Made by a program: the position numbers and the translations under genes. A stretch of 64,000 bases of DNA. It comes from Sulfurovaceae bacterium. Lineage in GTDB: Bacteria > Campylobacterota > Campylobacteria > Campylobacterales > Sulfurovaceae. Below the pieces are notes generated by a model that saw nothing but the letters and a program-made list of their open reading frames with translations, made no database searches and was not told where the DNA came from. Below are positions 15,333 through 24,027 of this stretch, piece after piece. Within the stretch, counting starts at the first letter, position 1. Each line of letters opens with the position of its first letter. The stretch lies in assembly GCA_028714675.1 (NCBI GenBank), contig JAQTLV010000005.1:3475-67474 (forward strand), read 5' to 3'.

Positions 15333-16814
15333 ATGTCAAAACGAACCGCAATTATAGATATAGGTTCCAATTCTGCTAGACTTGTAATATATGAACAAAG
15401 TAGCAGATATGGCTTTAGGCTTATTTGCGAACAAAAGAGTAAAGTTAGAATTGGAGAAGGCGCTTATAACAATGGTGGTTTCCTTCAACCAATAGGGATA
15501 GAAAGAGCCTACAATGCCCTTAATTCCTTTAAACAAACTATAGAAAACTACAAAGCCCACAAAACAATCTGCGTTGCCACATCGGCTCTTAGAGACGCTC
15601 CAAACTCAAAAGAATTTATACAAATGATAAAACAAAATCTTAATCTAAGCATTAAGGTTATAGATGGAAAAAAAGAAGCCTTTTATGGTGGCATAGCGGT
15701 ACTAAATCTTTTAACAAAAAAAGATGTTATCACTGTTGATATTGGAGGAGGATCCTCTGATATTACGCTTATTAGAAATGGTAAATTAGAAGATGCATTC
15801 TCTGTAAATATTGGTACCGTAAGGCTCAAGGAGTTATTTTTTGATAATAATAGCTCAATCAAAGATGCTAAAGAATTTATACAAAACGAACTTTCACTGT
15901 TACCAAAAAATTTTCAACTTGACACAATAGTAGCAATTGGTGGGAGTGCTAGAACTATTGCAGATATTATTATAAAAACATCAGACTATCCACTAAATAA
16001 ACTACATGCTTTCAAGTATGAATTAAAAGAATATAACGATTTGCTAAGTCGTATTGTATCAAGTGACATAAAAGACTTATATAATTTTGAAATTAGTCAA
16101 GATAGACATGATACTATAAGAGAAGGTATTTTGATATTTTTAGAAATTGCCAAATATATAGGAGCTAGACAAGTTATAACAAGTGGCGTTGGTGTGAGAG
16201 AGGGTGTATTTTTAACTAGTTTTTTAAAAAAATCAAATTTACAATTTCCAAATAATATAAATCCTAGCATACAAAATATACTTGATAGATTTGACTCTTG
16301 CCAAGGAAGCAAATTTGATAGCAAAAAAAGACAAACTATTAAAAAATTGGTAGAAATTTTCAGTTCAAACTTTGAAATTAAAAAAATATTTTTATTTGAA
16401 CTCCAAAGTGCAATCACAATGAGTGAGATAGGTAAGAACCTAACTATATATAAAGCTCACAAACACTCCTTTTATATAGCTCTGCAAGAGCTTAATTATG
16501 GTTTTACACACAAGCAAATGATTCTCATAGCCATGCTTCTCAAAGCTGGTAAAAAGGCGAAATTAAAAAAATATCTATATAAGAGATATAAATCTATCTT
16601 ACCAAATAAAATCACCCTAAAATGGCATCTGTTTCTATACTCTCTAACGCTCTGTATTTTCGAGTTTTCGAATGATACAAAAATATCTTTTTATTTTGAA
16701 AACAATACTCTTTATATCAAATCAGACCAATCTTTGTATCTACTAAAAGAAAGACTTGAAGAGATAGAAAAACCTGCAGATTTTTCTATAGAAGTGATTG
16801 ATAGCAAGGCATAA
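15333..16814 (+). CDS. ppx: Ppx/GppA family exopolyphosphatase / guanosine pentaphosphate phosphohydrolase
   Basis: 493-aa ORF with the ASKHA motifs IDIGSNSARLV and DIGGGSSD and a C-terminal helical extension. Confidence 0.85.
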   Translation: MSKRTAIIDIGSNSARLVIYEQSSRYGFRLICEQKSKVRIGEGAYNNGGFLQPIGIERAYNALNSFKQTIENYKAHKTICVATSALRDAPNSKEFIQMIKQNLNLSIKVIDGKKEAFYGGIAVLNLLTKKDVITVDIGGGSSDITLIRNGKLEDAFSVNIGTVRLKELFFDNNSSIKDAKEFIQNELSLLPKNFQLDTIVAIGGSARTIADIIIKTSDYPLNKLHAFKYELKEYNDLLSRIVSSDIKDLYNFEISQDRHDTIREGILIFLEIAKYIGARQVITSGVGVREGVFLTSFLKKSNLQFPNNINPSIQNILDRFDSCQGSKFDSKKRQTIKKLVEIFSSNFEIKKIFLFELQSAITMSEIGKNLTIYKAHKHSFYIALQELNYGFTHKQMILIAMLLKAGKKAKLKKYLYKRYKSILPNKITLKWHLFLYSLTLCIFEFSNDTKISFYFENNTLYIKSDQSLYLLKERLEEIEKPADFSIEVIDSKA

Positions 16815-16827
16815 TTAGACTCAGCTT

Positions 16828-17289
16828 CTAATCCTTTTTATTTATACATTCAATTAAGGCTTTGGAAAAATCTTCCAATGCTATATCTGCACCTAAATCC
16901 ATCATAAAAATACCAGTTGCATTTATGCTTATCCATGCATAGGTATCTTCATAATGCACTCGTACTCTTTTACCTATTCGATTTGGAACACCAAATTCAC
17001 CAGTTTCAAATAGTCTTTTACTGAAATCTTTTTTTGTGATATTTTTATCCCAATTTCCTCTACGCCATCCTTCTTCAGTATCAGGTTGAAAATTTTTCAT
17101 ATCACTAACACTATGCAAGGCATATTCAAAACATTGAAACTCTTTTTCCTTGTTATGAGACTTGATGTCAAACTTTCCACTAGCTCTTGGCTCAAATATA
17201 ACTATCAGTGCCTCTGGAAATCTATCGTATTTTGTAAATACAAAAATAATCAACAACCCTATCAGTATCCACTTTAATGCTTTTTTCAC
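16828..17289 (-). CDS. hypothetical exported/membrane-anchored protein (immunity-like module 3)
   Basis: It starts (M)KKALKWILIGLLIIFVF. The 5' end and RBS (AAAGGAGAATTGGTGAAAAAAGCATTAAAGTGGATA) match those of the 18154..18690 gene at 36 of 37 nt. A GTG start at 17289 is inferred from that paralog. Confidence 0.55.
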   Translation of the reverse strand: MKKALKWILIGLLIIFVFTKYDRFPEALIVIFEPRASGKFDIKSHNKEKEFQCFEYALHSVSDMKNFQPDTEEGWRRGNWDKNITKKDFSKRLFETGEFGVPNRIGKRVRVHYEDTYAWISINATGIFMMDLGADIALEDFSKALIECINKKD

Positions 17290-17326
17290 CAATTCTCCTT
17301 TTATATTATTTTGGGTCTGGTATCAT
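17266..17326 (-). repeat. composite inter-module junction repeat (copy A)
   Basis: 17291-17326 matches 17900-17935 at 34 of 36 nt. 17266-17302 matches 18667-18703 at 36 of 37 nt. Confidence 0.85.
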
Positions 17327-17466
17327 CATGAATTGCCACTACCATATAAACCAGTTTGTTCTGGAGCGAAACCATAGCCGTGTTCTATTCCAGTCGCATC
17401 GGTAATAACTAAAAATGTGTGGAGAATCCCTATTACATCCTGTCTAATTTCAACATTATAATTCAT
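17326..17466 (-). pseudogene. 46-codon ORF, probable decayed toxin-gene remnant
   Basis: The ATG at 17466 overlaps the TGA of the upstream 144-aa gene (ATGA). The translation is MNYNVEIRQDVIGILHTFLVITDATGIEHGYGFAPEQTGLYGSGNS. A different frame at its 3' end reads ...HDDTRPKII-stop, matching the YDTRHKII-stop tail of the 17910..18107 ORF. Confidence 0.3.
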
Positions 17467-17897
17467 TTGTTTATCCTTATAAGTTTAATTTCAAAAATTG
17501 GTTTTTCAATGATGAGCTGATATACTATTCCTTTATCTAAGGCTTCTTTATGAGTTTCTTTAAAGGCTTTGTAAATTATTGTTACATCTTGATGTTGATT
17601 AATATATTCTTTTTTTATGATATCAAAAATCTCTTGGAGCATTTTTTTATCTATTATCCCATATGAAGTAATAGAAACATTATTAAATGATGAGTCCCAA
17701 AAGATAATTTCTTTTTTGCTACAATTATTTTGTCTGTACCCTTGTTTGCTAATACTTATAATTTCACAAAATTTATTTTTTATTAATACATTTTCGATAT
17801 CAGATACTATTTTTATAGCACTTTTGTAATATTTTCCACTTGATCCAGCAAATAAAAATATTGAAACCAAAACTATTACTAAAAATATATTCCTCAT
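17463..17897 (-). CDS. hypothetical secreted protein (immunity-like module 2)
   Basis: 144-aa ORF with an N-terminal signal-peptide-like segment (MRNIFLVIVLVSIFLFAGSS). I recognise no family. Confidence 0.55.
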   Translation of the reverse strand: MRNIFLVIVLVSIFLFAGSSGKYYKSAIKIVSDIENVLIKNKFCEIISISKQGYRQNNCSKKEIIFWDSSFNNVSITSYGIIDKKMLQEIFDIIKKEYINQHQDVTIIYKAFKETHKEALDKGIVYQLIIEKPIFEIKLIRINK

Positions 17898-17899
17898 AC

Positions 17900-17935
17900 A
17901 ATTCTACTTTTATATTATTTTGTGTCTGGTATCAT
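17900..17935 (-). repeat. inter-module junction repeat (copy B)
   Basis: aattctacttttatattattttgtgtctggtatcat compared with copy A aattctccttttatattattttgggtctggtatcat. Confidence 0.85.
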
Positions 17936-18107
17936 AATTACTTGCAATTGACCAATTTTTGTTTATTGTTATTTTGCTATAATCCATACTATCGCCAAAA
18001 TATGGTCTTAGCATTGCTATTTCACCAGCAGTTAATCCTCTACTTCCATCACTTGAAATAGGTTCTCTTACATCAATTGTGCCTAAATCTATTATATTAT
18101 TTGCCAT
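17910..18107 (-). pseudogene. truncated DUF4157-like (polymorphic-toxin N-terminal metallopeptidase-like) fragment
   Basis: 65-aa ORF. LTAGEIAMLRPYFGDSMDYSKITINK parallels LTNNEIDMLKPIFSNSINYSIVKIFK of the intact HExxH protein at 22726..23259. This ORF stops before any HExxH motif. Confidence 0.5.
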
Positions 18108-18153
18108 TATTTCTCTTTCTGATAATTAAAATTTGAAACCATTTATTATATAT

Positions 18154-18690
18154 TCATGAACCACGATACTTGACAATTACATCATATTTACCAGTAGATG
18201 GATTTTTTTTAAATAAAATTGTAACTATAATATTTAACATATCTTCCCATTTCTGATTTCTAAAATTATTGCCTTTATATGCTTTGAAACTAAAATGATA
18301 CACTCCCATAGGATCTAACGGCATTGCTTTGTAAAATTTATCCGTACTCAAATTTGTACCATACGGTATGCAATTTTTCATTCCGACAATTGATGATAGC
18401 TTTATTCTCTCTCGAAATATTTTTGTATCATTTGATATATGCCAAAAATTGCTATCATAGATTTTCCATAAACTATTTTGATTATTTTTTGTGCTTTCAA
18501 CCATAATTGCCGTCAAATAATAATTATCAACACCATGAAAATCATCTATATAAAAACATAACTCTTTATTTGCATTGATGGTTACTCTCAAATCTTTTCT
18601 TGGACCGCCTGGTATTTTATCTCCAAAGCACCCACTCAAAAATGATATTGCCAATAATCCGATTATTATCCACTTTAATGCTTTTTTCAC
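18154..18690 (-). CDS. hypothetical lipoprotein (immunity-like module 1)
   Basis: 178-aa ORF with a GTG start, a signal peptide and a lipobox (LLAISFLSGC). Its N-terminus and RBS are shared with the 16828..17289 gene. Confidence 0.6.
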   Translation of the reverse strand: MKKALKWIIIGLLAISFLSGCFGDKIPGGPRKDLRVTINANKELCFYIDDFHGVDNYYLTAIMVESTKNNQNSLWKIYDSNFWHISNDTKIFRERIKLSSIVGMKNCIPYGTNLSTDKFYKAMPLDPMGVYHFSFKAYKGNNFRNQKWEDMLNIIVTILFKKNPSTGKYDVIVKYRGS

Positions 18691-18703
18691 TAATTCTCCT
18701 TTT
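18667..18703 (-). repeat. inter-module junction repeat (copy C)
   Basis: tatccactttaatgcttttttcactaattctcctttt compared with copy A, with one mismatch. Confidence 0.85.
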
Positions 18704-18750
18704 TATGTAAACATTTTACAAGTAGCAGCGATAAATTATCTACTGACATT

Positions 18751-19296
18751 TTACTCCTCTTGTTTATTGCTTGATTGCAATATTTTATAAACTTCACTTA
18801 TAAATAATGAGGCTATGAAAGAAATGTAACTTATTTCTAAGATTGCAAAAACTCCAATTCCAATGTCATTTTGTATAGCTTTATATGCCAAATTTCCTAA
18901 ATGAGATTTTTTAGGAAATGCGATTGTTCCATGAAAAAAACTTGACTCAAGATATAAACCTATCCAAAACTCATTTAGTAGCATTATGCTTAAAAATGTT
19001 ATTATTTTAGCTCTAGAATCATTAGAAAATATCCAATTGCTTTGAAGAATCCATAATAAAACTATAAGGGGCACCAATACCCATACTAATGATATTTCAA
19101 AAGCAACCGTTTGTGGCAACTGACTCACACTTGACATGACGCCAATACCTGGTATTATTGCTGACATTGATTTTATTAAAACTTGACACAACTCACACGA
19201 TGCTATCATGCTTTCCGTTGTAACCAATGGCACAACAAATAAAATAGCTAATATTGTATATATTGCAATATCATATTTGCTTTTTACTTCCTTCAT
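18751..19296 (-). CDS. hypothetical polytopic membrane protein
   Basis: 181-aa ORF with about 5 hydrophobic segments. It has its own AAAGGAGAG RBS and an upstream TGtATAAT box. Confidence 0.6.
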   Translation of the reverse strand: MKEVKSKYDIAIYTILAILFVVPLVTTESMIASCELCQVLIKSMSAIIPGIGVMSSVSQLPQTVAFEISLVWVLVPLIVLLWILQSNWIFSNDSRAKIITFLSIMLLNEFWIGLYLESSFFHGTIAFPKKSHLGNLAYKAIQNDIGIGVFAILEISYISFIASLFISEVYKILQSSNKQEE

Positions 19297-19328: not shown

Positions 19329-19336
19329 ATTATACA
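19329..19336 (-). promoter_or_regulatory. extended -10 box (TGtATAAT) upstream of the 181-aa membrane protein gene
   Basis: The reverse complement of attataca is TGTATAAT. It lies about 30 nt upstream of the RBS/ATG at 19296. Confidence 0.4.
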
Positions 19337-19435
19337 GTGCAACTATTCTATTTGCAACATATTATGTCAGTTAAATATTTTATATAATTTTTAAAATGAA
19401 TAGAAGAAATGGTCGTAAAAGATAAGTGGAGATGG

Positions 19436-19455
19436 ATTCCTGCTTTCGCAGGAAT
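19436..19455 (-). terminator. perfect 8-bp palindrome just after the bamA stop (terminator-like / REP-like element)
   Basis: attcctgc-tttc-gcaggaat. There is no clear U-run after it on the transcribed strand. Confidence 0.5.
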
Positions 19456-19474
19456 GACCAAGGGAGAAACCAAT

Positions 19475-21760
19475 TTAGAACTTTGTTCCCATAGTAAATT
19501 CGAAGCTTGAAGTTTTATCTCCAGCTTCAGGATTTATTGCTTTCGAAAAAATAAAATTAATTGGTCCAAATGGCGAGAACCATTCCAAAGATGCACCAGC
19601 AGAACTTCTACTTTCATTGGAAAAACTTTGATTATAATAATCATCACTACCTATAATACCCCAATCAGCAAAAAATGCTAAACGAATTTTTGCCTCTTCG
19701 GAAATCGGAATACTTGCTTCTACAGTATTTGAAAATGTCCAAGTTCCACCAACTTTTCCAACACCAGTAACCTCTGGAGAAATAGACCATGAGTCATAAC
19801 CTCTAACACTTCCAACACCACCTAAGTACAATCTTTCTGCGGCAGGTAAATATCCATTTGAATTCAACCAAGAACCTCTTGCTTTGTATCTCAAAATCAA
19901 ATCATAATCTATCAAATCTTGTAAACCATAATATGCACCAAGTTTTGCATTCAGTTTTACAAAATCGCTAAAATCTGTATAATTGTATGGTGTTGAAGAT
20001 GCCGTTGCATTCGGAGTTCCATCAAGTTGTGCTATTTCTCCATTTAAACTCAAAATAAAACCACTTCTTGGCACATAGTAATCATCTGTATTGTCAAATT
20101 TTATGCCTGCAACTCCAGAAAGTTTTTGATATTTATCATCATAAAAATGTGCATAAGGATCAGCTGGATCAAGTGCTTTTAATACTTTGGATTGATTATC
20201 TGCATAGGCTATTCCTGCGGATGCATAAAAGTTTCTCATAAATTCTCTACCAACAGTTAGGGATGCACCAGTTTGATCTAGCGAATAGTCTGTATAATCA
20301 TATTTTTTCTTATGAACATCCAAAGATACACTATACAAAGAGTCCCAGACTCTTGGATTTGTAAATTGCAAATTAAAATCTGTAGATATTTTTGATAAAT
20401 CTGCTCCTATACTAGCACTTATACCAGTCCCAAATAGATTTCTATCAGAAACACTTGCTTCTAGCATGGCGCCTTCATAACTACTATATCCTCCGCCTAT
20501 CGCAAACGATCCAGTTGGAGCTTCTTTTACATTTACAAGTAAATTCATCGAATTATCATCAAGTTTTTGAGGTGTAAGATCATATTTTTCAAAAAATCCT
20601 GTTCTTCCGATTGCATTTTTGCTGTCTTTTAAATCTGTTTGGCTGTATGTATCGCCAGGAGCTAAATATATATATCTTCTTATAACACTATCTTTTGTTT
20701 CAGTATTCCCAGAGATAAGCACATCATTGATTGTAACTTTAGATCCTGGAGTTATATTGTATTGAATATTGACTATGCCATTTGCTTCGTCTTTATTGAT
20801 TACTGGCTCAACCGTAGCATATGCATACCCCAAGTTTGCTGTTTGCTCTTGGAGATATTGCATATCTTGTCTTAGTTTGCCTACATCAAAATATTTTCCT
20901 TTTTTCAACTTAGGATCATCTTTTAGATTCTCTGCTAGACCTTCTATGTTTTGATTTATAACAACATCGCCAACTTTATATCTCATACCTTCTTCTATTT
21001 GTATTTCTATTTTGGCATTATTTTGTCCATCAACTTGCAATAAAGGTTTGCTCACCCTAGCATCTATATAACCCTCTTTTGCATAAGCATCTTTAATTCT
21101 AAATGCATCTTTTTCAAGTTCTCCCAAATAAGCTGTGCCTCTATCCAAAAACGGAATCCAACCAAACCAGCCCTCTTCTTTATTTGCCATAGCTGATTCT
21201 AAATCAGAATCACTCAATGCATTATTTCCTATAAATTTAATCTCAGTGATTTTTATTTTGTCGCCTTTTTTTACATCAAAAATCAAAGATACACCATCTT
21301 CTCCAACTGTTTTTGTTTGTATATCAACAGTAGCATCATATACACCTTCGCTAGCTAACTTAGCTTGAAAAACACTTTTTGCTTTTTGCATTTTAGCATC
21401 ATCATATAATTCTCCTCTTTTTAGCCCCATCGCTTCAATTAATTGCTTATTTGAATCTTCTGAGCCATATCCATTTATTTCCACATTTGCAATAGCTGGT
21501 TTTTCAATAAAATGGAAAACAACAACTCCACCATTTTTTGTTTCAACTGTCACGTCTTTAAAATAACCTTGAGACATTATATTTTTAACGCCTGCATCAA
21601 GTGAACTTTTTGATAAATTTTCACCAACTTTTACTCCACTAATCTCATTAATAGCACTGGGGGATAAACTATGAAGTCCATCATATTCTATTTTTGTAAT
21701 ATTTTGGGCAAATAAGAATGCACCAAAAGATATCCAGACCAAAGAAGTTTTTTTCAACAT
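19475..21760 (-). CDS. bamA: outer membrane protein assembly factor BamA
   Basis: 761-aa ORF with a signal peptide, repeated POTRA-like N-terminal modules, and a C-terminal beta-barrel ending in ...FEFTMGTKF (terminal aromatic residue). Confidence 0.92.
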   Translation of the reverse strand: MLKKTSLVWISFGAFLFAQNITKIEYDGLHSLSPSAINEISGVKVGENLSKSSLDAGVKNIMSQGYFKDVTVETKNGGVVVFHFIEKPAIANVEINGYGSEDSNKQLIEAMGLKRGELYDDAKMQKAKSVFQAKLASEGVYDATVDIQTKTVGEDGVSLIFDVKKGDKIKITEIKFIGNNALSDSDLESAMANKEEGWFGWIPFLDRGTAYLGELEKDAFRIKDAYAKEGYIDARVSKPLLQVDGQNNAKIEIQIEEGMRYKVGDVVINQNIEGLAENLKDDPKLKKGKYFDVGKLRQDMQYLQEQTANLGYAYATVEPVINKDEANGIVNIQYNITPGSKVTINDVLISGNTETKDSVIRRYIYLAPGDTYSQTDLKDSKNAIGRTGFFEKYDLTPQKLDDNSMNLLVNVKEAPTGSFAIGGGYSSYEGAMLEASVSDRNLFGTGISASIGADLSKISTDFNLQFTNPRVWDSLYSVSLDVHKKKYDYTDYSLDQTGASLTVGREFMRNFYASAGIAYADNQSKVLKALDPADPYAHFYDDKYQKLSGVAGIKFDNTDDYYVPRSGFILSLNGEIAQLDGTPNATASSTPYNYTDFSDFVKLNAKLGAYYGLQDLIDYDLILRYKARGSWLNSNGYLPAAERLYLGGVGSVRGYDSWSISPEVTGVGKVGGTWTFSNTVEASIPISEEAKIRLAFFADWGIIGSDDYYNQSFSNESRSSAGASLEWFSPFGPINFIFSKAINPEAGDKTSSFEFTMGTKF

Positions 21761-22725: not shown

Positions 22726-23259
22726 ATGTTAAAACTATTCAACAAGAGATATAGACAATTAACAAATAATGAAATAGATATGCTAAAACCAATTTTTAGC
22801 AATAGTATCAACTACAGTATAGTAAAGATTTTCAAAGATAGATATTTGCCATTTCAAAATAAAAATATAGCATTAAGCCCAAATGGAAATATATACTTTG
22901 ATGAAAAACATCATCAAGATGACTTTTCAATATCATCAAATCCAGATAAAATGTGGTTTATCCATGAAATGACACATGTTTGGCAATATCAAAATGGTTT
23001 TAAAATAATCAAAAATGCTTTGAAGCTTTCATTAAAAGGTCAATACAAAAACAATAGAGCATATTGTTATAATCATACTTGTTTGACAATGGATTTTTGT
23101 TCATTTAATTTTGAGCAACAAGCAACTATTGTAGAGCATTACTTTGCGGGAAAATATCTTAATATTAGTAAATATATAGATAGATTGGCATATCTCGAAG
23201 ATGTGCTAAAAGATTTTTTAAAAGATCCAAAAGATAAAAAACTTATCTCATGTATATAA
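22726..23259 (+). CDS. DUF4157-like HExxH zinc-metallopeptidase-fold protein
   Basis: 177-aa ORF with LTNNEIDMLKPIFSNSINYSIVKI...ALSPNGNIYF...WFIHEMTHVWQYQ (HEMTH at 22963-22977). This is the pattern I associate with DUF4157. Its ATG directly abuts the tyrA stop. Confidence 0.6.
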   Translation: MLKLFNKRYRQLTNNEIDMLKPIFSNSINYSIVKIFKDRYLPFQNKNIALSPNGNIYFDEKHHQDDFSISSNPDKMWFIHEMTHVWQYQNGFKIIKNALKLSLKGQYKNNRAYCYNHTCLTMDFCSFNFEQQATIVEHYFAGKYLNISKYIDRLAYLEDVLKDFLKDPKDKKLISCI

Positions 23260-23334: not shown

Positions 23335-24027
23335 ATGAAAAATGATGACGGTTTCAATGATTATGATTTTGATATAGGTGAAGTTATTAGGGATGCTTAT
23401 GAGCTTACAAATGGAGTAAAATTAACTTTCTTTCTGTCTTTTTTGTTTTATGTGTTTGTTATAATGGGAGTATCTTTTTTGGTTGGTTTAGTTTATCCTG
23501 GTTTTGCAGAAGATAAAATAAGTCAAGCGGTTTTACAGCTAGTTATTAGTGTTCTTGCAATACCAATGATCGTTGGGATACAAATGCTAGCCCTTAAGCA
23601 TACAAGAGGTGAAGATATAGAATTTAAAGATATTTTTAACTATTATAATAAAACTTTGAAACTTTTTTTTGCTTCTCTGCTTGTTGCCATATTCATATAT
23701 ATACCTTTAATACTCTTTGCCATTCTAGCAGTTGTTGCAAAAATACCTGTAATTATAATACTTTCAATTTTTCCTATTTTGTATATAGCCCTATCTTACA
23801 CATACACTACTCAACTTATTGCAGATAAAGATTTAAAAATTTGGGATGCTATGGAACTTTCTAGAAAAGCTGTCAAAAGACATTGGCTAAAGTTTTTTGG
23901 ATTAGGTTTTATGCTGGGTATAATTTATTTGATTGGTGCTCTTGCTCTTGGTATCGGTTTAATTTGGGCTATACCATTGGTAATGATAGCCATGTCTGGC
24001 ATAGTATATAGAAAAGCATTTGATTAA
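23335..24027 (+). CDS. hypothetical polytopic membrane protein
   Basis: 230-aa ORF with about 5 TM segments after an acidic N-terminus. I recognise no confident family. Confidence 0.6.
   Translation: MKNDDGFNDYDFDIGEVIRDAYELTNGVKLTFFLSFLFYVFVIMGVSFLVGLVYPGFAEDKISQAVLQLVISVLAIPMIVGIQMLALKHTRGEDIEFKDIFNYYNKTLKLFFASLLVAIFIYIPLILFAILAVVAKIPVIIILSIFPILYIALSYTYTTQLIADKDLKIWDAMELSRKAVKRHWLKFFGLGFMLGIIYLIGALALGIGLIWAIPLVMIAMSGIVYRKAFD

Follow-up and report, generated by a model that had tools for sequence, protein, structure and literature searches.

A 64-kb stretch of DNA from a Sulfurovaceae bacterium (contig JAQTLV010000005.1; 31.6% G+C), hereafter the window, to whose full length all coordinates refer, carries between bamA and ppx an island of small genes that is quite probably a decayed polymorphic-toxin locus of Sulfurovum, composed of orphan immunity genes and toxin-gene stubs. 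The window is assigned to Sulfurovum by the relatives of its ppx gene, and its DNA is also present in the metagenome-assembled genome GCA_028716645.1. The island consists of six open reading frames (ORFs), all on the minus strand at 16828-19296, which occupy the gap between bamA (19475-21760, minus strand) and the convergent gene ppx (15333-16814, plus strand). Their products of 181, 178, 65, 144, 46 and 154 amino acids (aa), here called p181, p178, p65, p144, p46 and p154, are exactly those listed in the original prediction, which had seen in this region orphan immunity genes and remnants of toxin genes assembled into an island by recombination. This view was right in kind: the locus varies among relatives, the stubs end at a repeated element (D2), and leaders appear to have been swapped between genes. 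The polarity of the toxin-tip arrangement that it had assumed is reversed, as the immunity gene comes first and the remnants correspond to the 5' (N-terminal) ends of toxin genes.

Homologues of the candidate immunity genes are found paired with toxin-type genes elsewhere, that of p178 in the fetched locus L039 (fetched loci are numbered with the prefix L), those of p154 in L045-47, that of p144 in L043, and that of p181 in L050, where the toxin ORF is incomplete. Loss of toxin sequence is evident in the window itself, in which p65 retains 52 toxin codons, p46 retains approximately 45, and none are left after p154. The assignments of p178 and p65 are strong, and those of p154, p144, p46 and p181 are predictions drawn from gene context in short contigs. 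None of the six products had been recognised as housekeeping in the original prediction, and no ordinary envelope function surfaced for any of them in our searches, the fold search with p154 being uninformative. A Pfam scan of the six products gave nothing usable, and a scan of NCBIfam gave a match for p178 only. The p46, p144, p154 and p181 sequences were concatenated and searched against 1.84 billion representative proteins, which returned a small family for each.

The p178-p65 module

The C-terminal domain of VgrG2b is a periplasm-acting metallopeptidase toxin of a type VI secretion system (T6SS) (Wood et al., PMC6899460), and has been placed in the Tpe family, named from Tpe1-Tpi1 of Acinetobacter baylyi (PMC6899460). 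It is neutralised by PA0261, a small exported protein of the Tpi family; in Enterobacteriaceae the Tpi proteins are lipoproteins, and they are cysteine-dependent and were in all cases found encoded beside the toxin (PMC6899460). In the NCBIfam scan p178 matched NF045617 ('putative T6SS immunity periplasmic lipoprotein') with an E-value of 7e-10 and 39 bits, and the mature protein alone gave 20.8 bits (E 3e-4). On plasmids, the gene directly 3' of Tpe homologues bears the NF045617 name and scores 68-70 bits. When the p178 family was compared by hhalign with an alignment of seven genes located directly 3' of Tpe homologues, the two were matched with 95.9% probability (E 5.6e-9) over 118 columns, with both cysteine motifs (ELCFYI and NCIPYG) aligned. 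A pairwise comparison of p178 with a Tpi from Pantoea gave no alignment, and the relationship is visible to profile methods only. The p178 family can be considered rare, since no relatives were found among 185,579 species genomes, a collection to which the genome of the window does not belong, and a PDB sequence search with this family returned chance-level matches only. The p178 gene adjoins the Tpe stub p65 in the window and a full Tpe-RTX gene in L039, in each case lying upstream of it, whereas the immunity gene lies downstream in the Tpe loci examined and in the published system (PMC6899460).

Comparison of p65 with a 21-sequence alignment of the Tpe family (hhalign, 97.5% probability, E 8e-12) placed its residues 18-50 on the N-terminal signature of that family, and p65 holds the Tpe N-terminal motif R-x-L-T-x-G-E-I...F-G-D-S-I-D-Y-x-x-V-x-I. 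The top PDB match of p65 was 6H56, the crystal structure of the VgrG2b effector domain from Pseudomonas aeruginosa, and blastp matched it to a Tpe paralogue in the window (E 2e-7). It is also 60% identical over 47 aa (E 5e-15) to the N-terminus of the 1271-aa protein encoded in L039. The HExxH motif is absent from p65, which stops approximately 25 residues before the position of HEMTH in its relatives, and p65 is predicted to be a remnant and not a functional member of the family. A word-index search of 5.8 billion proteins with p65 returned only the self match and no full-length match. From the NF045617 and hhalign evidence we infer that p178 is a divergent Tpi-type immunity lipoprotein and p65 a Tpe toxin remnant, making p178 a strong candidate for an orphan immunity protein against a Tpe-type metallopeptidase and p65 an equally strong candidate for a Tpe-type toxin-gene stub. 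For these two products, a toxin and an immunity identification were obtained in place of ordinary envelope functions, and the earlier suggestion that the exported products would fit a toxin acting in the periplasm agrees with the site of action of Tpe, the predicted target family of p178.

A p178-family lipoprotein gene was also observed in another member of the Campylobacterota (L003, 8895-10504, on the same contig as L040), inside a hydrogenase maturation (hyp) cluster, where it adjoins a PemK toxin gene and a gene for another small exported protein. The p178 immunity family is therefore also found as isolated insertions.

In the window a full-length HExxH protein of 177 aa is encoded just 3' of tyrA (22726-23259, plus strand) and matches 6H56 with an E-value of 4.5e-21. 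The gene is followed by one for a polytopic membrane protein (23335-24027, plus strand), not by a Tpi lipoprotein, and this second product gives weak, below-cutoff matches to DUF975 and to the BPSS1780 family. This gene pair is also kept in several Sulfurovum contigs, shortened to 63 codons in L007 and missing from L010; it may represent either another toxin-immunity pair or a housekeeping peptidase.

Putative giant toxins in the parental modules

A metagenome scan with the p178 family led to contig L039, in which a p178 homologue is followed, after a gap of 15 nt, by the ORF of 1271 aa. The N-terminal 150 residues of this giant protein match 6H56 (E 2.7e-17) and contain HEMTH, and its centre matches the self-processing module of FrpC (6SJW, E 1.1e-28) in an alignment that opens at a Pro equivalent to P415 of FrpC. 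The remainder is made up of RTX calcium-binding repeats (HemolysinCabind, E 4.5e-60), and the C-terminus resembles, by eye, a type I secretion signal. A second giant, of at least 1269 aa and also with FrpC-like and RTX regions, starts 3 nt after the gene for the p154 homologue P0037 in L045. The two giants are 41% identical, and only from about residue 256 on; the N-terminal domain of the L045 protein (first 255 residues) is unrelated to that of L039 and gave no match in Pfam or the PDB. A variable N-terminal domain on a shared body is, as far as sequence can tell, the pattern of a polymorphic toxin. The RTX repeats imply type I secretion as the export route of the parental toxins; the contigs read contained no genes for an ABC transporter, a membrane-fusion protein or TolC.

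The Asp-Pro scissile bond of FrpC is replaced in both giants, the sequence being DLF-P in L039 (approximately aa 455-462) and WSF-P in L045 (approximately aa 423-428), while a related truncated fragment in L050 (1-624) reads HD-P. Calcium-triggered 'clip' activity may accordingly vary from one of these toxins to another. The analogy originally drawn with Rhs, contact-dependent inhibition (CDI) and other polymorphic-toxin loci holds as far as the swapping of modules is concerned, but the parents of the p178-p65 and p154 modules would be FrpC-like RTX giants, and not Rhs, CDI or plain T6SS cargo proteins.

Upstream of the p178-like gene in L039 are a gene for a 176-aa lipoprotein with a weak match to DUF5625 (729-1259) and a 62-aa ORF, which may together form another orphan module.

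The p154, p144-p46 and p181 modules

The p154 protein is begun one codon later, at GTG, by gene callers, giving 153 aa. Its homologue P0037 is 67% identical and is encoded in L045-47, which represent the same locus because they open with the palindrome and the intergenic sequence found after bamA in L008. No toxin gene follows p154 in the window. The AlphaFold2 model of p154 (pLDDT 85) gave weak and mixed results in the fold search (helix-grip, Flpp3 and BamC), and a PDB sequence search with the p154 family gave chance-level matches only. On the evidence of P0037 and the giant encoded beside it, p154 probably gives immunity to the N-terminal domain of a giant RTX toxin whose gene is no longer present. 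A possible origin of p154 or p144 as paralogues of p178 or Tpi was considered and rejected, as profile comparisons aligned only the signal peptides.

In L043, a p144 homologue of 135 aa (E 3e-10, cysteines aligned) is encoded directly 5' of P0068, a 132-aa protein with a p46-like N-terminus, and p144 is probably the orphan immunity protein of a p144-p46 module. A p144-like tail, a complete p144-like gene and an ATGA-overlapping p46-like stub of approximately 12 codons follow each other in L044 (1-640). This small tandem array of the module is located at an unrelated locus, beside an inositol-monophosphatase-like gene.

Full-length relatives of p46 include P0068 and P0063, the latter a protein of 250 aa fused to a Peptidase_M15_3-like domain. 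The family alignment shows conservation of a His in PHTF and of a Cys in (N/Q)CxxW; p46 keeps the His (as LHTF) and ends before the (N/Q)CxxW of P0068, P0063 and P0084. A PDB sequence search with p46 returned chance-level matches only. The AlphaFold2 model of P0068 (pLDDT 81) found the Aichivirus 2A protein as its best PDB match (7ZV1 and 7ZV6; probability up to 0.93, TM 0.43-0.53), which we take to have the H-box/NC, LRAT-like fold. We propose p46 as the putative front end of a toxin-like gene for an H-box/NC enzyme, without the catalytic cysteine. P0068 is similar to the H-box/NC (LRAT/PLAAT-like, permuted NlpC/P60) enzymes in its nearest structural match and in having a conserved His and a later Cys, and differs from them in the weakness of the match and in that p46 retains only the part with the His.

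The membrane protein p181 has no match in Pfam or NCBIfam and is absent from the orthologous contig L005. In L050, the 3' end of the gene for its relative P0045 is overlapped by an ORF opening with a glycine-zipper-rich domain, and in L049 another relative, P0041, is encoded downstream of a giant-type toxin gene truncated inside the FrpC-type module. This context suggests p181 as a probable orphan immunity protein whose target would be a membrane-inserting (glycine-zipper) toxin domain. Between p181 and p178 lies a mini-ORF, MSVDNLSLLLVKCLHKKEN, which by eye resembles the toxin N-terminus of L050 (MDSESSFLDGIDSLADLC...) and is too short to test; it is a possible, if weak, candidate for a third toxin stub.

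Junction repeats

The near-identical junctions between the genes that had been described earlier are real and longer than first noted. A repeat search found two pairs of direct repeats, D2 with copies of 47 nt and 89% identity and D1 with copies of 52 nt and 88% identity (Table 1). Their cores (17291-17324/17900-17933 and 17266-17302/18667-18703) match when the variable positions are wild-carded; in the 64 kb each is present in exactly two copies, against an expectation of 0 from 100 shuffles. Neither the window nor the 49 fetched loci contained a further copy of either core, and there is no sign that the junction is a generic genome-wide repeat. Since a D2 copy (D2b) and a D1 copy (D1b) share 13 nt at the ribosome-binding site (17290-17302), the junction that contains them (17251-17336) is a chimera of the other two, as had been proposed. 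The D2 copies bracket the p144-p46 unit with a spacing of 609 nt, and the D1 copies bracket the block from p178 to p46 with a spacing of 1401 nt.

The toxin homology of p65 stops at residue 50 by profile or 52 by identity with L039 (nt 17952-17958), close to the edge of D2a at 17945, and the family homology of p46 stops at about residue 45 (nt ~17332), close to the edge of D2b at 17336. Both toxin stubs are terminated by the same 47-nt element, which is also the source of the next gene's ribosome-binding site. The string DTR(H/P)KII-stop had been described as the last codons of the upstream fragments, which is correct for p65, where it is in frame, and incorrect for p46, where it is +1 out of frame. 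Its interpretation as a conserved toxin C-terminus was not borne out, as it sits in the element that truncates both stubs. A gapped blastp alignment of p65 with the Tpe paralogue of the window extends into the p65 tail, and the DTR.KII codons may be of Tpe origin; the alignments were too short to choose between derivation from the Tpe gene (YFDEKH region) and from the p46 family (NDTLH region). A weak third copy of the D2 core inside p181 (19000-19022; 23 nt, 83%; NDSRAKII compared with YDTRHKII in p65) was set aside as probably due to chance, because repeats of this quality are abundant in the AT-rich region.

The leader of p178 (18645-18700) is 94.6% identical to that of the p154-type gene for P0037 in L045. 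As P0037 has the same alpha leader (D1) and the same TKYDRFPE N-terminus as p154, the p154 subfamily is the native bearer of this leader. In L006 and L039 the p178 body is headed by other leaders, and leaders are, to judge from these comparisons, exchanged between gene bodies.

Variability of the locus among relatives

In three Sulfurovaceae genomes (L007, L010 and L009), the ends of ppx and bamA are within tens of bases of each other with no gene between them. In L008, the closest genome, with a ppx that is 84-92% identical, the locus contains a single gene, which encodes a 132-aa lipoprotein homologous to mature p154. L005 is a short contig from the same locus, the end of which matches the tail of ppx, and contains only a p178-like and then a p154-like gene. 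The p178 body is present in L006 with 97% nucleotide identity from the lipobox on, with a different ribosome-binding site and signal peptide, and only the first nine codons of p65 are kept 3' of it. Sister Sulfurovum genomes hold zero, one or two of the island's genes at this position, and these differing states indicate that genes have been gained, lost and re-headed at the bamA-ppx site. Conservation of the same gene order in all relatives without a toxin partner, which had been named as evidence that would speak against an orphan toxin/immunity island, was not seen, the locus being empty or holding one or two genes.

A fusion was also observed at the locus. In L041 (354-1325), adjoining a ppx gene whose tail matches L008, an ORF joins a lipase-like domain (GHSLGG; Mbeg1-like, E 4.6e-9) in frame to the final 33 codons of a p154-type gene; the linker of the lipase-like domain is similar to the stretch behind the N-terminal domain in the L045 giant. 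Such a fusion is the trace of a deletion or a recombination within the locus. The breakpoints in relatives lie at other positions than D1 and D2, namely the lipobox (L006), the tail of p154 (L041) and the FrpC-type module (L049 and L050).

Origin and function of the island

In the model that we favour, an intact module consists of an immunity gene with a toxin gene directly behind it, the order shown in relatives. In two of the four modules the toxin is a giant with a variable N-terminal toxin domain, an FrpC-type self-processing module, RTX repeats and a C-terminal region like a type I secretion signal, the last judged by eye in L039, the ORF of which is complete at that end. With the export signal at the C-terminus, the variable poison would be placed at the N-terminus and the immunity gene upstream, as a mirror image of Rhs and CDI systems. 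In the window, four immunity-type genes (p181, p178, p144 and p154) survive in one co-directional array with one promoter-like site, and the toxin genes have been reduced to 5' stubs (p65, p46 and perhaps the 19-codon ORF) or lost. Modules would be added or replaced by recombination, with crossovers in the ribosome-binding site and signal-peptide leader or in the junction element. The exported products, anchored to lipid or membrane, would bind and neutralise toxin domains delivered by relatives in the periplasm or membrane, a Tpe-type metallopeptidase being the presumed target of p178, so that the strain would keep immunity without the cost of the toxins. The most likely function of the island is defence against toxins made by relatives.

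Several observations weigh against this model. The toxin and immunity roles of all these proteins are predicted, and the immunity calls for p144, p154 and p181 depend on gene context in short metagenomic contigs. The match of p178 to NF045617 is below the curated cutoff of that model (39 compared with 43 bits), and about half of the score comes from the signal peptide and lipobox. The fold match of P0068 is weak (E 0.09), and fusion of the p46 family to RTX repeats was not seen. The Phe-Pro sequences in L039 and L045 make release of the toxin domain uncertain for these giants. The 47-nt element was found in two copies only, its role as a recombination substrate is presumed from them, and no source of D2 was found in any fetched locus. 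As the original prediction had also noted, the window shows no secretion genes, a scan of its ten largest other ORFs having identified these as housekeeping genes.

The same features could be read as a classical T6SS orphan immunity island composed of remnants of small T6SS cargo effectors, in which RTX and type I toxins had no part. We consider this unlikely, even though Tpe has been demonstrated by experiment to be a T6SS effector, its PA0261-type immunity gene lying downstream (PMC6899460), a plasmid Tpe homologue is located among tssH, hcp and vgrG, the NCBI label of the p178 family is that of a T6SS immunity lipoprotein, and the p46 family was met only as small proteins. The nearest relative of p65 (60%) is the N-terminus of an RTX giant with a p178 homologue upstream, a second RTX giant is present at the same locus in L045, and the order of immunity gene then toxin gene is opposite to the Tpe-then-Tpi order of the Tpe loci examined and of PMC6899460. 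Neither the window nor the fetched Campylobacterota contigs that carry these families showed any T6SS gene, and a literature search on the T6SS in Sulfurovum found nothing relevant.

Recombinase-linked arrays in which orphan immunity genes form cassettes are described for Bacteroidales, and the junctions could by analogy be sites of dedicated site-specific recombination between integron-like or rAID-like cassettes, with the 47-nt element on both sides of p144-p46, the 52-nt element around the p178-to-p46 block, and both stubs stopping exactly at an element. This reading is quite improbable, given that no recombinase gene was found inside or beside the island (between or adjoining bamA and ppx), that each element has two copies and none in other fetched loci, that the copies are merely 88-89% identical, and that the breakpoints in relatives are elsewhere. 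The absence of a recombinase together with breakpoints in other conserved stretches favours homology-facilitated recombination over a cassette system. Very improbable is an ordinary operon of envelope lipoproteins in which the short ORFs arose by chance and the repeats by gene conversion between paralogous signal peptides: p65 and p46 are specifically homologous to N-terminal parts of larger enzymes or toxins, sister species do not have these genes at the locus, the homologues of each body gene adjoin or precede toxin-type genes elsewhere, and the D2 repeat is outside any signal peptide. What such an operon would explain is that p178 and p154 are alike in the signal-peptide region only, that p154, p144 and p181 have no family annotation, and that the fold matches of p154 are weak (helix-grip and small-lipoprotein folds).

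Comparison with known systems

For T6SS, Rhs and CDI toxins, in all of which the poison is C-terminal, orphan immunity arrays are already established. In the T6SS auxiliary clusters of Vibrio cholerae such arrays arise via effector displacement (PMC5361080). The island resembles these clusters and orphan Rhs/CDI modules in that immunity genes are kept and have homologues in complete pairs elsewhere, toxin genes are truncated or lost, the content is strongly variable among close relatives, and short shared sequences mark the module borders with no dedicated recombinase. It is unlike them in that its immunity genes are upstream and the leftovers are toxin 5' ends, in that no main toxin or secretion cluster remains at the island, and in that the parental toxins would be FrpC-like RTX proteins.

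With the Tpe/Tpi system (PMC6899460; 6H56; NF045617) the island shares the N-terminal motif in p65, the lipobox and two cysteine motifs in p178, and a periplasm-acting toxin with a matching exported immunity protein. It differs from that system in that p65 is without the HExxH part, p178 scores below cutoff, the gene order is inverted, and the Tpe domain in L039 heads an RTX giant, being neither the end of a VgrG or PAAR protein nor a small cargo protein.

In the frpD-frpC locus of Neisseria meningitidis, the lipoprotein encoded upstream binds the variable N-terminal part of the RTX protein (PMC7078468, PMC5472700), and FrpD binds an N-terminal fragment of FrpC at 0.2 nM (PMC7078468, PMC5472700). 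Bayer-Santos et al. have put forward the hypothesis that FrpC is an antibacterial toxin secreted by the type I route and FrpD its immunity protein (PMC6759196). The parental modules are like this locus in having a lipoprotein gene directly upstream of the gene for an RTX giant, and in the order of variable N-terminal domain, self-processing module and RTX repeats in the giants. They are unlike it in that no sequence or fold similarity to FrpD was detected for p178 or p154, in the replacement of Asp-Pro by Phe-Pro in L039 and L045, and in that no RTX gene is left in the window.

The locus points to the same arms race in reversed toxins, with the poison in front, followed by the FrpC-type module and RTX repeats, and with an upstream immunity gene. 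It connects RTX giants with Tpe, a known toxin domain acting in the periplasm, and with the immunity family of Tpe. Via a toxin domain of proven activity, it offers independent comparative support for the hypothesis that Neisseria FrpC/FrpD is a toxin-immunity pair (PMC6759196). That FrpC-like proteins are antibacterial toxins neutralised by upstream lipoproteins can now be tested with the candidate pairs named here, and free-living sulfur-oxidising Campylobacterota appear to join such warfare. We would give an even chance to the broader proposal of a class of type I-exported polymorphic toxins in Sulfurovum and other bacteria, FrpC-like giants with an N-terminal variable domain, an upstream immunity gene and mirror-image orphan arrays; if it is true, FrpC/FrpD of Neisseria would be a toxin-immunity pair. 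The domain repertoire proposed for this class would comprise a metallopeptidase proven in the T6SS, lipase-like and glycine-zipper domains, and folds with no known match. No paper was found in the literature on polymorphic N-terminal toxin domains of such giants or on mirrored orphan arrays.

Features and surroundings of the island

The features of the island are listed in Table 1; the genes that flank it are bamA, tyrA, ppx and a ferredoxin-like gene.

Table 1. Coordinates of the genes, repeats and putative signals in and around the bamA-ppx island
Feature	Position	Strand	Description
p154	16828..17292	-	154 aa, signal-anchored, two-cysteine; 'resident' gene of the locus
D1b	17251..17302	-	alpha leader of p154
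D2b	17290..17336	-	ends the p46 stub out of frame; gives p154 its ribosome-binding site
p46	17326..17466	-	46 aa; start overlaps the p144 stop (ATGA); first ~45 codons of a ~130-aa domain
p144	17463..17897	-	144 aa, exported, two-cysteine; 12 relatives
D2a	17899..17945	-	ends the p65 stub (..DTRHKII-stop); gives p144 its ribosome-binding site
p65	17910..18107	-	65 aa; codons 1-52 (18107-17952) correspond to the Tpe N-terminus; last 13 codons at or in the junction element
p178	18154..18690	-	178-aa lipoprotein, LSGC lipobox; PA0261/Tpi family (predicted)
D1a	18652..18703	-	ribosome-binding site and first codons (MKKALKWI..) of p178, the 'alpha leader'
Mini-ORF MSVDNLSLLLVKCLHKKEN	18690..18749	-	19 codons between p181 and p178, runs into D1a
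p181	18751..19296	-	181 aa, polytopic membrane protein; 17 distant relatives
Promoter-like site	19329..19357	-	TTGCAA, 17-nt spacer, TATAAT, TG upstream; score 10/12
G+C-rich palindrome CATTCCTGCGAAAGCAGGAATC	19435..19456	.	3' of bamA; upstream edge of the variable locus

The promoter box that had been noted upstream of p181 is present as TGTATAAT at 19329-19336 and is 100% conserved in the orthologous contig L005. The segment 19316-19336 is 100% identical to nt 1-21 of L005, where the box is located directly 5' of the p178-like gene, and the promoter-like site probably drives the entire island. The base composition of the island (26-28% GC, compared with 33-34% for bamA) shows a slight AT excess that is not decisive. 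The CATTCCTGCGAAAGCAGGAATC palindrome is common to several strains, following bamA in L008 (1738-1759) and opening L045 (5-26), and resembles a terminator or an element of the REP type.

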